A stretch of DNA of 5,910 bases from a virus (lineage: Duplodnaviria > Heunggongvirae > Uroviricota > Caudoviricetes): the IMG/VR virus record IMGVR_UViG_2802429232_000005; one strand, 5' to 3'. Positions 3,042-5,624 of the stretch are shown one piece after another; positions within the stretch are counted from its first letter, which is position 1; each line of letters starts with the position of its first letter. The translations under genes were made by a program, and so were the position numbers. The notes under the pieces were generated by a model, which was not told the origin of the DNA, did no database searches, and saw nothing but the letters and a program-made list of their open reading frames with translations.

Positions 3042-3102
3042 TGCCTTATCTACACTGCGATAATTACACCAACAAGAAAACAACATGTTTACGCAGTGAG
3101 GA
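3042..3102 (+). promoter_or_regulatory. Conserved leader module B: TGCCTTATCT, extended -10 TGcGATAAT, AAACA-aca-TGTTT palindrome, SD GAGGA
   Basis: TGCGATAAT 3056-3064; palindrome 3078-3090 (core AACATGTT is perfect); GAGGA 3098-3102, 7 nt before ATG 3110. Confidence 0.5.
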
Positions 3103-3396: not shown

Positions 3397-3428
3397 AAGG
3401 CCACCAATGCTGGTGGCCTTAAATGACC
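3397..3428 (+). repeat. Hairpin repeat copy 2: AAGGCCACCA-atgc-TGGTGGCCTT + AAATGACC
   Basis: Perfect 10-bp stem with 4-nt loop, 5 nt after the stop codon; direct repeat of 2926-2956. Confidence 0.6.
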
Positions 3429-3520: not shown

Positions 3521-3588
3521 TTTGACGCCTTATTCGTACAACGATAATTAATACCAACAAGAAAACAATTTGTTATTTACGATAAGGA
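3521..3588 (+). promoter_or_regulatory. Conserved leader module C: sigma70-like promoter TTTGAC-N16-GATAAT, AACAA-t-TTGTT palindrome, SD AAGGA
   Basis: TTTGAC 3521-3526, GATAAT 3543-3548; palindrome 3564-3574; AAGGA 3584-3588, 7 nt before ATG 3596. Confidence 0.55.
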
Positions 3589-3595
3589 ATTAATC

Positions 3596-4078
3596 ATGAA
3601 TTTTATCGCTACTGTAAACGCACCCGCACATGGCAATATCGCTGTAACGTTCTCTGACATTGAAAAACGAGTACTTGGTGCATGGCGCGACAATGAGACG
3701 GTAGAACTGTCAGCACAAGAAAAATGCATTATTGCACGCGACATCATTGGCAATCGTCGTTACTCGCGGGTATTTGAGAAAGCGTATGTGGTAAATTCTG
3801 GATTCGGAACGTTCGTCTTTCCGGTGCGCTCCGGGCGATTCTGCCAGTCCAAGCTGATTGAGTTCGCTACGCAGATTTCTGTCTGGATTAAAACTCAATC
3901 GTCGTTCAAATTTTCCGACGATGAAGCAGTATCGCAGGGGATGCGGATCGCCAACAATGCGATTAAATGCAAAAACATTACGTATACCGCTGGCGTTGAT
4001 ACATGGAAACTGTTTTGCGCTAACTTTATGCTGAACGTATACGCCAGCAACCGCATCCACATCCTTGATGGCGTGTAA
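3596..4078 (+). CDS. Hypothetical protein (160 aa)
   Basis: ATG 3596 with SD and a near-consensus promoter upstream. Stop TAA 4076-4078, followed by a stable hairpin. Confidence 0.7.
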   Translation: MNFIATVNAPAHGNIAVTFSDIEKRVLGAWRDNETVELSAQEKCIIARDIIGNRRYSRVFEKAYVVNSGFGTFVFPVRSGRFCQSKLIEFATQISVWIKTQSSFKFSDDEAVSQGMRIANNAIKCKNITYTAGVDTWKLFCANFMLNVYASNRIHILDGV

Positions 4079-4080
4079 CT

Positions 4081-4109
4081 GAGAAGAGGGCCAGAAACGG
4101 CCCTTTCTC
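4081..4109 (+). terminator. Stable hairpin (GAGAAGAGGGCC / GGCCCTTTCTC, loop AGAAAC) after the 160-aa gene; weak U-tract
   Basis: About 11-bp stem with a 1-nt bulge; the loop carries the CAGAAACGGC repeat motif; the T-rich tail lies partly inside the stem. Confidence 0.4.
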
Positions 4110-4123
4110 TATAGCCACCAGCT

Positions 4124-4206
4124 GCCGCAGGGAAATTTTCAGAAACGGCAAGGAACGCATTCATGAGCCGACGGGAAACGGCCAGGATTTTTTCGGGAAA
4201 CGGCTG
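4124..4206. repeat. Second cluster of GGGAAACGGC-type direct repeats (4-5 degenerate units)
   Basis: cagggaaa (4129), cagaaacggc (4140), aggaacgc (4151), cgggaaacggcc (4172), cgggaaacggctg (4194). GCCGCAGGGAA at 4124-4134 also occurs at 1336-1346. Confidence 0.55.
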
Positions 4207-4334
4207 CATTCGCCTTTGTGTAGAAAAAAACATCGGGAAGCTGGTGGAATCCAACCAGCGGTTGTCGGACAGGTGAGCGGGGAAAATTATGATGACTTTC
4301 GTCGCCTGAGACATCCAGATTTCTTTCGTAGCAT

Positions 4335-4388
4335 AATCACATACGTGATTAAGTGGTGTGATTATGTGAAAAATCACGCGCACATAAT
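4335..4388. promoter_or_regulatory. Cluster of GTGATT / AATCAC inverted repeats; candidate operator or origin-like site
   Basis: AATCAC-atac-GTGATT at 4335-4350; ATTATGTG (4361-4368) and CACATAAT (4381-4388) form a perfect 8-bp inverted repeat; four GTGATT/AATCAC hexamers in alternating orientation. Confidence 0.35.
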
Positions 4389-4420
4389 ACGCGAGCGGAT
4401 ACGGAACAAAACAAAATGCC

Positions 4421-4448
4421 GATCCGCGCCGACAAATAAACGCGGATC
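4421..4448. other. Perfect 8-bp inverted repeat GATCCGCG / CGCGGATC with 12-nt spacer, containing two GATC sites
   Basis: GATCCGCG 4421-4428 and CGCGGATC 4441-4448. Confidence 0.4.
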
Positions 4449-4618
4449 ATAAAGCAAGACTAAAAGCCAATGATTAACCATACACCATAACGCAATATAA
4501 CGCGTTTTAAGCGCGTTAATGCGCTAAGTAATGGGTATATGCTGGTAAGGATATAAAAGCTCGTCTATGGCGTTATTTTTGCGCTTATTTTTATATTGTT
4601 GGAGTGAGTCAAAGACAA

Positions 4619-4642
4619 TAAAAAAAGCGCCATCATTGGCGC
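4619..4642 (-). terminator. Rho-independent terminator on the minus strand (GCGCCA / TGGCGC stem, then T-run on the minus strand)
   Basis: Stem 4627-4632 / 4637-4642; the A-run at 4619-4626 on + is a U-run after the hairpin on the minus strand. Confidence 0.6.
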
Positions 4643-4666
4643 GTTATGGTGGAAGTATTGGAAACG

Positions 4667-4689
4667 AAAAAAGCGCCCATAGTGGGCGC
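4667..4689 (-). terminator. Rho-independent terminator on the minus strand (GCGCCCA / TGGGCGC stem, loop TAG, T6 on the minus strand)
   Basis: Stem 4673-4679 / 4683-4689 preceded on + by AAAAAA 4667-4672; lies just downstream of the 76-aa gene stop. Confidence 0.7.
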
Positions 4690-4695
4690 TCGATT

Positions 4696-4926
4696 TTATT
4701 TATGTAAACTGATTTCAAATCCCATTTCTACAAACGCTTTTAACATTAAAAATATATCAGCGTCATTCACGTCTGCTTTTTTTCGCTCCTGGTCGCTCAA
4801 TAAGTCAATTTTGCGCGTCGTTTCATCTATAAGCTCGACTGCGCGCCCAGCGTAACCAGCGATCCCAGCGATGCGATTAACAAAATATTCATTGCGCACG
4901 TTAACGCCAGCGATAATCATAAACAT
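4696..4926 (-). CDS. Hypothetical small protein (76 aa)
   Basis: ATG (complement of 4924-4926) with SD AAGGAG (complement of 4934-4939) at 7-nt spacing. Flanked by near-identical terminator hairpins; AT-rich codon usage like the adjacent 216-aa gene. Confidence 0.6.
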   Translation of the reverse strand: MFMIIAGVNVRNEYFVNRIAGIAGYAGRAVELIDETTRKIDLLSDQERKKADVNDADIFLMLKAFVEMGFEISLHK

Positions 4927-4939
4927 GATTAAGCTCCTT

Positions 4940-4960
4940 AAAAGCGCCCATAGTGGGCGC
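4940..4960 (-). terminator. Rho-independent terminator on the minus strand between the 216-aa and 76-aa genes; near-identical to 4667-4689
   Basis: Stem GCGCCCA 4944-4950 / TGGGCGC 4954-4960, loop TAG. On the minus strand it is followed by TTTT and then immediately the AAGGAG SD of the 76-aa gene. Confidence 0.65.
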
Positions 4961-4973
4961 CAGATTCCATTAA

Positions 4974-5624
4974 TTACGCTTTGAAAGCATCAGCCAGATA
5001 GTTATAGAAATCATTTTTAATAAAGCGATATTGCTGCGTACCAGCTTTTGCGCTTCCCATTCCTTTGACTTTCTCAACAAGTCCAAGACGTTCGCAAAGA
5101 TTGATCAACTGGTTGGCTTGAGTATAGCCAGCGTCCAATTTAATTTCGCACGCTTTTTTAGCTTCATTCATTAAATCGAAAACAGCGCCATTAGTGAACG
5201 TGTCGATCTCGTCGTTAATCATATCGATTAAAGCGAATACACGAGATCCTGACATATCAGCGATGGAGTAAACGCATTTACCAGATTTAATTGATTTAAC
5301 CAGATAAACCAGTTTTTCCAGTGAATAACTATTAGTCATTGCATCACGAAAAAATACTTCTGGCGCTTGTTTACTTGCTTTAATCGCATAGTAGAAAACA
5401 GAGCATAATTTTTCATCTTCTACAGCGTTTACAACGTTGTTGATGAAGTAAGCAAGTTTAGTGGTCGCAGCTTGCATATTTGCTTTGTCTGCTTTAGTGT
5501 GCGTACCATTTTTATAATGTTCGTTATATGTTTGAGTTGCCAGATCTGCTTTTTCGCGCAGCTCGTCGGATACAATGGATGCAGCTTCAATGATGGATTT
5601 TTTAGAAATGATAATGTTAGCCAT
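4974..5624 (-). CDS. Hypothetical protein (216 aa), Lys/Ala-rich, AT-rich codon usage; family not recognised
   Basis: ATG (complement of 5622-5624) with SD AAGGA (complement of 5633-5637) at 8-nt spacing; long uninterrupted ORF; terminator directly downstream. Confidence 0.7.
   Translation of the reverse strand: MANIIISKKSIIEAASIVSDELREKADLATQTYNEHYKNGTHTKADKANMQAATTKLAYFINNVVNAVEDEKLCSVFYYAIKASKQAPEVFFRDAMTNSYSLEKLVYLVKSIKSGKCVYSIADMSGSRVFALIDMINDEIDTFTNGAVFDLMNEAKKACEIKLDAGYTQANQLINLCERLGLVEKVKGMGSAKAGTQQYRFIKNDFYNYLADAFKA

Follow-up and report, generated by a model that had tools for sequence, protein, structure and literature searches.

Noncoding control regions of phages and plasmids include several familiar architectures. 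Iteron-type origins are exemplified by lambda ori, which combines four iterons with an A/T-rich stretch and a palindrome, and P1 oriR is another example. Packaging sites, such as lambda cosB with its R sites, P1 pac, and SPP1 pac, have repeated short motifs, bent DNA, and a symmetric core; immunity-region operators and the P1 and P7 heteroimmunity cassettes are noncoding and carry several short dyads; and intrinsic terminators join G+C-rich stems to U-rich tails. Here, we compare with these systems a 617-bp intergenic spacer (positions 4079–4695) in a 5910-bp stretch of Caudoviricetes DNA (IMG/VR record IMGVR_UViG_2802429232_000005; the whole stretch is referred to below as the window), in which a first-pass annotation had pointed to a dense set of palindromes. 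Across 99% of its length, the window shares 97% identity with Escherichia phage Cyrano (OV696614), an element that has a second record as the E. coli LF82 plasmid pLF82, and it is matched by 951 plasmid records. Cyrano is an SSU5-like phage-plasmid that is inducible by ciprofloxacin (PMC9928086).

The reading that we tentatively favor is that the spacer is a cis-acting DNA site for protein assembly, shielded from transcription by terminators and organized like an origin or a packaging site. From left to right, it would then consist of the terminator of the + strand gene array; four GGGAAACGGC iterons bracketed by a Chi-bearing 9-bp inverted repeat; a fast-evolving linker; a hairpin-prone core of short dyads and conserved islands; ~120 bp of phased A/T tracts; and two minus-strand terminators. 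The spacer looks like an uncharacterized member of a familiar class, that of cis-acting intergenic control or assembly regions, and not like a new type of system.

A conserved spacer between convergent gene sets

Nearly all genes between 29 kb and 99 kb of the Cyrano genome lie on the + strand, and the spacer is the convergent, intergenic junction of this long series with a short minus-strand block. It is flanked on the left by the gene for a 160-amino-acid (aa) protein, CYRAN_111 (3596–4078, + strand), and on the right by a 76-aa gene, CYRAN_112 (4696–4926, minus strand). In 784 plasmid records, which span at least six genera, this pair of genes is separated by a spacer of 580–650 bp; the hosts include Escherichia, Klebsiella, Enterobacter, Yersinia (pMT1), Salmonella (pHCM2 and SSU5), and Citrobacter. 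Distant relatives have it as well, one in Klebsiella (605 bp) and one in Pectobacterium (719 bp), in which a 216-aa protein encoded by the minus-strand block is 50% and 39% identical, respectively.

We collected 85 unique spacers and sorted them into three lineages: lineage A, the window-like sequences of Escherichia and Shigella (26 sequences); lineage C, the SSU5/pHCM2/pMT1/Klebsiella/Enterobacter type (51 sequences); and lineage B, eight mosaics (L003 and L004 among them) that are A-like save for a C-like patch at ~4200–4390. A further mosaic is L102. Judged by mean pairwise divergence within lineage C, the DNA around the palindromes is under constraint in the SSU5-type lineage, with 0.115 differences per site in the iteron block (4097–4217), 0.131 in the core (4356–4450), and 0.142 in the phased block (4460–4590), compared with 0.34 and 0.25 at third codon positions of the 160-aa and 216-aa genes. 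The linker (4259–4355), at 0.35 per site and with many indels, evolves neutrally. The recombination junctions of the mosaics L003, L004, and L102 fall in the short conserved islands GGGAAACGGC, CTTTCG, and ATACGCGAGCG, which suggests that these islands serve as recombination linkers between variable cassettes. The last of them (4387–4397) is kept across all three lineages, is unique in the Cyrano genome, and forms the right edge of the SSU5-like patch in lineage B.

Protein coding was considered for the spacer and rejected, because the indels that distinguish relatives would break a reading frame, their lengths not being multiples of three (16 nt are deleted in pHCM2, and more in Klebsiella lineages); the annotations that relatives carry here also disagree with one another. 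The same indels bear out the earlier doubt that the open reading frame (ORF) at 4216–4452 is a gene. It had been described as the only ORF in this region, which is incorrect in that mechanical ORFs at 3895–4383, 4349–4450, and 4374–4481, all on the minus strand, overlap it too; none is conserved.

Iterons, Chi sites, and phased A/T tracts

The left part of the spacer (4092–4205) holds four iteron-like direct repeats of the form (C/G)(A/G)GAAACGGC (GGGAAACGGC-type), at 4092, 4140, 4172, and 4195. The iteron-like repeats have spacings of 22–33 bp, and in sequence terms they are direct repeats spaced by whole helical turns, as iterons are. The most deeply conserved element of the whole spacer, TTCGGGAAACGGC (4192–4204), lies among them and is invariant in seven spacers, including those of the distant Klebsiella and Pectobacterium relatives. 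Six more iteron-like repeats, spaced by 21–22 bp, form another cluster at 474–600, on the far side of the gene array. The two clusters (474–600 and 4092–4205; consensus (G/A)G(G/A)AA(A/C)GG(C/T)) flank a 3.5-kb array of small genes, and exact GGGAAACGG occurs within the whole Cyrano genome in these two clusters alone. The mosaic L004 has one additional iteron unit. By eye, the stretch at 60–290, upstream of the left cluster, is very rich in A and C, with few G or T runs.

The iterons of the spacer are bracketed by a 9-bp inverted repeat, CCACCAGCT/AGCTGGTGG (4115–4123/4239–4247), each arm of which holds a Chi octamer (GCTGGTGG), in minus-strand orientation at 4115–4122 and in plus-strand orientation at 4240–4247. 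The left copy is kept in 72 of the 85 unique spacers and the right copy in 77. The right copy takes three alternative positions (equivalent to 4240, 4258, and 4286) in three lineages, within otherwise fast-evolving sequence, and this pattern suggests that it is maintained by selection. Chi is about ten-fold over-represented in these genomes, with 25 copies in Cyrano (2.4 expected) and 32 in the distant Klebsiella relative NZ_CP068974 (3.1 expected), and the copies cluster round the gene array and the spacer: five fall in the 5.9-kb window in Cyrano (796, 2930, 3409, 4115, and 4240), and 14 of 32 within ~9.6 kb in the Klebsiella relative. Two of the Chi sites in the window lie inside terminator hairpins, GGCCACCAGCATTGGTGGTC at ~2925–2945 and GGCCACCAATGCTGGTGGCC at ~3400–3420. 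In Chi-rich lambdoid phages, Chi clusters lie beside the DNA end that is open to RecBCD (2025 Genome Research, PMC12315714), so that a role in packaging or at a DNA end is worth considering here, as a lead and not as evidence.

At the other end of the spacer, helically phased A/T tracts alternate with CGCG-type cores over 4480–4600, a stretch that includes the conserved island GTAATGGGTAT (4528–4538). The periodicity of A/T dinucleotides at 10–11.5 bp exceeds that of shuffled sequence in the window (P=0.001), in SSU5 (P<0.001), and in the distant Klebsiella relative (P=0.007). Such ~120 bp of phased tracts are, by their sequence, the signature of intrinsically bent DNA, and the stretch would be expected to bend. 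Two palindromes had been placed at 4499–4519 by the first-pass annotation. One of these, AACGCGTT (4499–4506), is present; the other, TTAAGCGCGTTAA, is not a true palindrome, as its outer TTAA alone pairs, and the actual repeat at its site is TAACGCG(7)CGCGTTA (4498–4518, with arms at 4498–4504 and 4512–4518). Lineage C has an analogue, AAACGCG(9)CGCGTTT, shifted right to 4555–4577, and the AACGCGTT-type palindromes are units of a family-wide phased array.

A palindromic cassette of the Escherichia lineage

The remaining repeats reported earlier are all present where they had been placed. They comprise the hexamers AATCAC (4335–4340 and 4372–4377) and GTGATT (4345–4350 and 4358–4363) and two inverted repeats with 8 of 8 arm positions complementary, ATTATGTG/CACATAAT (4361–4368/4381–4388) and the GATC-containing GATCCGCG/CGCGGATC (4421–4428/4441–4448); a 10/10 inverted repeat, CATAATCACA/TGTGATTATG (4332–4341/4357–4366), had been overlooked. 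The density is well above that of shuffled sequence. Counting arms of at least 6 nt and loops of at most 20 nt, we found eight inverted-repeat axes in 4335–4530, against 1.00±0.96 in 500 dinucleotide-preserving shuffles, none of which reached eight; for arms of at least 8 nt there are two axes, against 0.07, and 3 of the 500 shuffles reached two. In a sliding scan, all 196-nt segments with at least two repeats of 8-nt arms start at 4201–4361; the stretch 4335–4530 is the densest part of the window. Conservation of these palindromes in related elements had been proposed as a check, and here the outcome is divided, in that the spacer is conserved and most of its palindromes are not. Perfect repeats with arms of at least 6 nt in 4200–4620 number 10 in lineage A, 5–7 in lineage B, and 0–4 in lineage C, for a chance level of ~2.9 per 617 nt. 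By these counts, a high density of palindromes is confined to the Escherichia lineage, and the SSU5/pHCM2/pMT1 spacers are at chance level.

Most of the palindromes belong to a cassette at 4329–4388 that is restricted to the Escherichia lineage, in which nested and overlapping repeats derive from TGTGATTATGTGA copies: CATAATCACA(15)TGTGATTATG, TAATCAC(4)GTGATTA, GTGATT(8)AATCAC, and ATTATGTG(12)CACATAAT. Comparison with the lineage B and C sequences traces the cassette to an ancestral motif, TGTGATTATGTGAA, around which DNA was twice duplicated in inverted orientation and twice deleted. The direct counterpart of this motif is at 4357–4370 (TGTGATTATGTGAA), and inverted copies are at 4332–4343 and 4381–4388; the 9-nt ancestral loop TCCGTGGGT has been lost, so that AAATCAC now directly follows 4357–4370, and the other deletion removed the ancestral repeat CACGTTG(2-3)CAACGTG. 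The cassette is present in 207 of 5426 complete E. coli genomes (~4%), never on the chromosome, and is confined to the ~100–115-kb Escherichia and Shigella plasmids of this family; an origin from elsewhere was considered and rejected, as it is found in this plasmid family alone. No further copy of GTGATTATGTG, GCGCGGATC, or ATACGCGAGCG exists in the 108-kb Cyrano genome. Both strands of 4300–4460 fold better than shuffled sequence (z=−2.6 for the plus strand and z=−3.56 for the minus strand).

The palindromes of lineage A multiply one ancestral motif. This may have been of advantage, through extra sites for binding or for hairpins; it could equally be a by-product of template switching in a stretch that tolerates change. 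It is possible, although on balance unlikely, that the 4329–4388 palindromes are a mutational by-product with no function of their own, formed when template switching at an imperfect hairpin copied TGTGATTATGTGA in inverted orientation and deleted neighboring DNA. One direct and two inverted copies accompanied by two deletions are what this history would leave behind, and the restriction of the high density to lineage A agrees with it, as do the complete loss of the ancestral motif from a large Klebsiella lineage, the position of the left part of the cassette in a stretch that evolves at a neutral rate in the SSU5-type lineage (0.34–0.55 per site), and a diversity within lineage A that equals the synonymous-site background. 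Three observations point the other way: the deleted CACGTTG..CAACGTG lay in constrained sequence (0.13–0.19 per site), and another repeat was put exactly there; a GTGATT...AAYCAC dyad is kept in lineages A and B and in most of C, its loop measuring 3, 8, or 17 nt; and the cassette is fixed, being 95%–100% identical in ~200 plasmids. This explanation is limited to the 4329–4388 cluster and is compatible with a functional remainder of the spacer.

Hairpins and terminators

Terminator-like sites number eight in 3900–5000, where 1.5 are expected, and are sited on both flanks of the spacer. On the left, a hairpin on the + strand (4088–4110, GGGCC-AGAAAC-GGCCC followed by TTTCTCT) begins 10 nt past the stop codon of the 160-aa gene, and its stem shows a compensatory change between lineages (GGGCC/GGGCC-type to GGGGC/GCCCC); a consensus terminator scan did not report it, and we therefore call it a putative terminator. 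On the right, the minus-strand genes are followed by two strong minus-strand terminators (4642–4627 and 4691–4671, the second bidirectional) that are nearly invariant across the family. A 21-nt terminator core, AAAAGCGCCCATAGTGGGCGC, occurs twice, at 4667–4687 after the 76-aa gene and at ~4935–4955 between the 76-aa and 216-aa genes, and the small gene between the two copies varies among relatives, encoding 76, 67, or 75 aa or being absent.

Two further hairpins on the minus strand resemble intrinsic terminators in their G+C-rich stems and U-rich tails. The consensus scan reported the one at 4393–4377 (CGCGUAUUAUGUGCGCG followed by UGAUUUUUCA), which is restricted to the Escherichia lineage and whose pairing gains G-U pairs on the minus-strand reading only. 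The other, at 4449–4420, has two GATC sites (GATCCGCG(12)CGCGGATC followed by GCAUUUUGUUUUG) and is terminator-like on the minus strand; its natural variants give wobble pairs on either strand and so do not identify the strand. This GATC hairpin (4421–4448) occurs in lineages A and B only and is wholly absent from the mosaic L102; of its two arms, the SSU5-type lineage keeps only the right one, (G)CGCGGATCAC, which is an island conserved family-wide. Stem and U tract at 4449–4420 and 4393–4377 are not conserved outside lineages A and B. Unlike ordinary intrinsic terminators, these inner hairpins lie past two stronger terminators, are restricted by lineage, and have no identified transcript to end. 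Dam-methylation-dependent effects had been suggested on account of the GATC sites. There are two of these in the 617 bp (4421 and 4445), where ~2.4 would be expected (617/256), and relatives have 1–5 per spacer; GATC at chance number leaves that suggestion without support.

The minus-strand hairpins also raise the idea that the core encodes a small noncoding RNA on the minus strand, which would start within 4626–4460, end at 4449–4420 and/or 4393–4377, and regulate in the manner of the P1 c4 antisense RNA. We consider this improbable. Two U-tailed hairpins do lie 180–300 nt past the pair of strong operon terminators, folding of the minus strand exceeds that of shuffled sequence (the z=−3.56 above), and several stems gain G-U pairs on the minus-strand reading only; other natural variants favor the plus strand. 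The minus strand has no promoter-like site; sigma-70 promoter-like sites number 2 in all, with 2.3 expected by chance, and hand inspection of the TTGACT at 4614–4609 found no −10 element at a usable spacing. A search of all Rfam families on both strands (E≤1) gave no match in the spacer, the P1 c4 RNA family included, and no RNA fold is conserved across the family (RNAalifold structure conservation index of 0.15 for the plus strand and 0.30 for the minus strand). Complementarity within the 108-kb genome does not exceed 13 nt, and the 38 matches of 11–13 nt compare with 32 expected. Both terminator-like hairpins are absent from the SSU5/pMT1 lineages and from L102. The only two pMT1 entries in a survey of Y. 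pestis small RNAs lie at 98.1 kb and 105.8 kb, whereas the homologous spacer, at 36.0–36.6 kb, has none (PMC3770706 Table S1). On these grounds (no promoter, Rfam match, conserved structure, or complementary target, and terminator-like hairpins in lineages A and B only), a small regulatory RNA gene is not supported.

That the hairpins are back-up terminators and the spacer merely a transcriptional buffer between convergent gene sets, as its position between convergent modules, the excess of terminator-like sites, and four successive minus-strand candidates might suggest, is very doubtful, given that each module already ends in strong, invariant terminators at its edge of the spacer, that the constrained blocks of the SSU5-type lineage have no terminator-like hairpins, that iterons and phased A/T tracts are left unexplained, and that 500 bp far exceeds the needs of a pair of terminators. 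The small-RNA and the buffer explanations both cover the two U-tailed hairpins of lineages A and B, and not the family-wide constraint.

Neighboring proteins

The 216-aa protein (CYRAN_113, phrog_1513; 4974–5624, minus strand) is a candidate DNA-binding partner for the conserved motifs. Its AlphaFold model (pLDDT 83.6) combines an N-terminal helical bundle with a C-terminal winged helix, and its best fold matches in the Protein Data Bank (PDB) are all winged-helix DNA binders, namely the complex of replication terminator protein (RTP) with DNA (1f4k), PadR/LmrR, MukE/F, the origin recognition complex (ORC), and TubR, although these matches are weak (E≥0.13); the best of them is the B. subtilis RTP bound to DNA. 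The winged-helix region is identical in lineages A, B, and C, and any binding to the spacer would therefore concern the conserved motifs and not the lineage-specific cassette. The 216-aa protein is the only local candidate binder of the spacer. The 160-aa protein has no structural match, and it is 100% identical between lineages A and B despite their differing cassettes; the neighboring proteins contain no Pfam domain, and sequence searches of the PDB gave no match. They were rejected as cassette-specific binders, since they do not co-vary with the cassette.

Just to the right of the window, CYRAN_114 (11858–12379 of L001), labeled "transcriptional regulator," is a full-length FljA-type phase-1 flagellin repressor (PF03614, E=1e-80) that also weakly matches Hfq, below the Pfam cutoff; from this match, the phage-plasmid may be able to silence host flagellin. 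A motif, GAAAACAnnnTGTTT, stands just downstream of a GATAAT-like −10 element and before at least 11 + strand genes across the Cyrano genome, in the window at 935–960, 1415–1440, 3075–3100, and 3560–3585, and the genes that it precedes include those for the small terminase subunit, ParA, and a helicase. The motif resembles a promoter/operator unit used throughout the genome, or else a 5′ mRNA hairpin, and is unrelated to the spacer palindromes.

Candidate functions of the spacer

The first-pass annotation had read the palindrome density as typical of operator clusters, origins, or recombination sites. A cis-acting role at the level of DNA fits the spacer best, and the more specific operator and transfer-origin (oriT) proposals fail along with the Dam one. 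The spacer resembles immunity-region operators and the P1 and P7 heteroimmunity cassettes in its short dyads and noncoding character, and in a cassette that differs between similar elements with junctions in conserved islands. It differs from them in that it has no promoter above chance and no adjacent repressor gene (a putative repressor, CYRAN_45, is at 42 kb), its cassette motifs recur nowhere else in the genome, no neighboring protein changes with the cassette, and the spacing of the GTGATT arms ranges from 3 to 17 nt among lineages, which is unusual for a protein-dimer site. An operator cluster of an immunity region was accordingly rejected, there being no promoter overlap and no flanking regulator gene (no match in Pfam; "unknown function" in PHROGs). 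An oriT is unlikely: of the 784 plasmid records, 757 are non-mobilizable according to PLSDB. A site for Xer recombination (dif/cer) was not found in the spacer, where the best candidate has 14 of 22 arm positions, against a shuffle mean of 13.6 (P=0.49). GC skew was rejected as an origin indicator, as it tracks gene orientation only, and the ends of IMG/VR contigs, taken as a proxy for virion ends, are scattered and uninformative.

From the anatomy, repeat statistics, conservation, and cassette origin set out above, we infer protein binding, bending, and the process served. In the site for protein assembly that we propose, a protein of the phage-plasmid would bind the iterons and the conserved islands, with the winged-helix 216-aa protein as the only local candidate; the phased A/T tracts would bend the DNA round the protein complex; and the dyad-rich core between iterons and tracts would be the place of action on the DNA, be it melting, cutting, or loading. 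The layout would match that of an origin for lytic replication or a pac site for packaging.

As in iteron origins such as lambda ori and P1 oriR, the spacer appears to have repeats at whole helical turns, bent or A/T-rich DNA, a dyad-rich segment, and an adjacent winged-helix gene. Unlike them, it has no DnaA or IHF sites, it lies between genes and not inside an initiator gene, its iteron sequence matches no known family among those compared, and RepA and its origin are at ~61 kb in Cyrano. The likeness to the packaging sites of lambda, P1, and SPP1 would lie in the repeated short motifs, bent DNA, symmetric core, and nearby Chi; lambda R sites contain CGTTTCC, the reverse complement of the iteron core GGAAACG, which we note as a lead and not as a test. 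In contrast to those sites, the terminase genes are not adjacent, and Chi occurs in both orientations. The terminase large subunit of Cyrano has 418 aa, much smaller than lambda gpA, and so is not lambda-like.

Several results weigh against a site for protein assembly. The spacer is ~38 kb from the RepA gene of the plasmid replicon and ~9 kb from the terminase genes, so that neither classical partner gene adjoins it. As for a binding protein, the fold matches of the 216-aa protein are weak and the 160-aa protein has none. Among eight spacers there is no conserved DnaA box (at most one mismatch) and no IHF consensus, and LexA and CRP sites are likewise lacking. Diversity of the cassette within lineage A (0.021 per site) is close to the 0.019 found for third codon positions in the adjacent gene, and selection on the new palindromes therefore cannot be shown. 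Most of the family has no palindrome cluster, and the large Klebsiella lineage has the ancestral GTGATT repeat deleted, from which it follows that the cluster is not essential to a shared function. The mosaic recombination seen in the spacer can distort divergence comparisons. Finally, a switch in Chi orientation at the spacer (best split 19/25, at 98–99 kb) was found post hoc, has a genome-wide P of 0.11–0.13, and does not recur in the distant Klebsiella relative (P=0.15 at the spacer); it is not used as evidence.

A more specific proposal, which we think unlikely as it stands, is that the spacer is the start site of lytic replication or of DNA packaging in the SSU5 family of phage-plasmids, pMT1 and pHCM2 included. 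On this view, a phage protein would be drawn to the iterons and the bent DNA, and the DNA would be melted or cut in the dyad-rich core; the end so produced would be shielded from RecBCD, or enabled to recombine, by the surrounding Chi cluster. The swappable cassette would confer specificity for a lineage, for instance by determining which relative in the same cell can be replicated or packaged.

Implications for SSU5-type phage-plasmids

Clinical Enterobacteriaceae commonly carry SSU5-type phage-plasmids, and both the Yersinia pestis plasmid pMT1 and the Salmonella Typhi plasmid pHCM2 belong to the family. In the literature searched, we found nothing on this locus or on the lysogeny control, lytic origin, or packaging site of these elements, which appear to be uncharacterized. 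The natural cassette swaps seen in lineages A and B and in L102 are ready-made experimental material. If the spacer module proves inert, the locus would still be a case in which inverted duplication has made a statistically striking palindrome cluster without selection. As a constrained, transcription-shielded noncoding module of 0.5 kb that is found from E. coli to Pectobacterium, the spacer is an obvious candidate for one of the missing cis-acting functions of the family.

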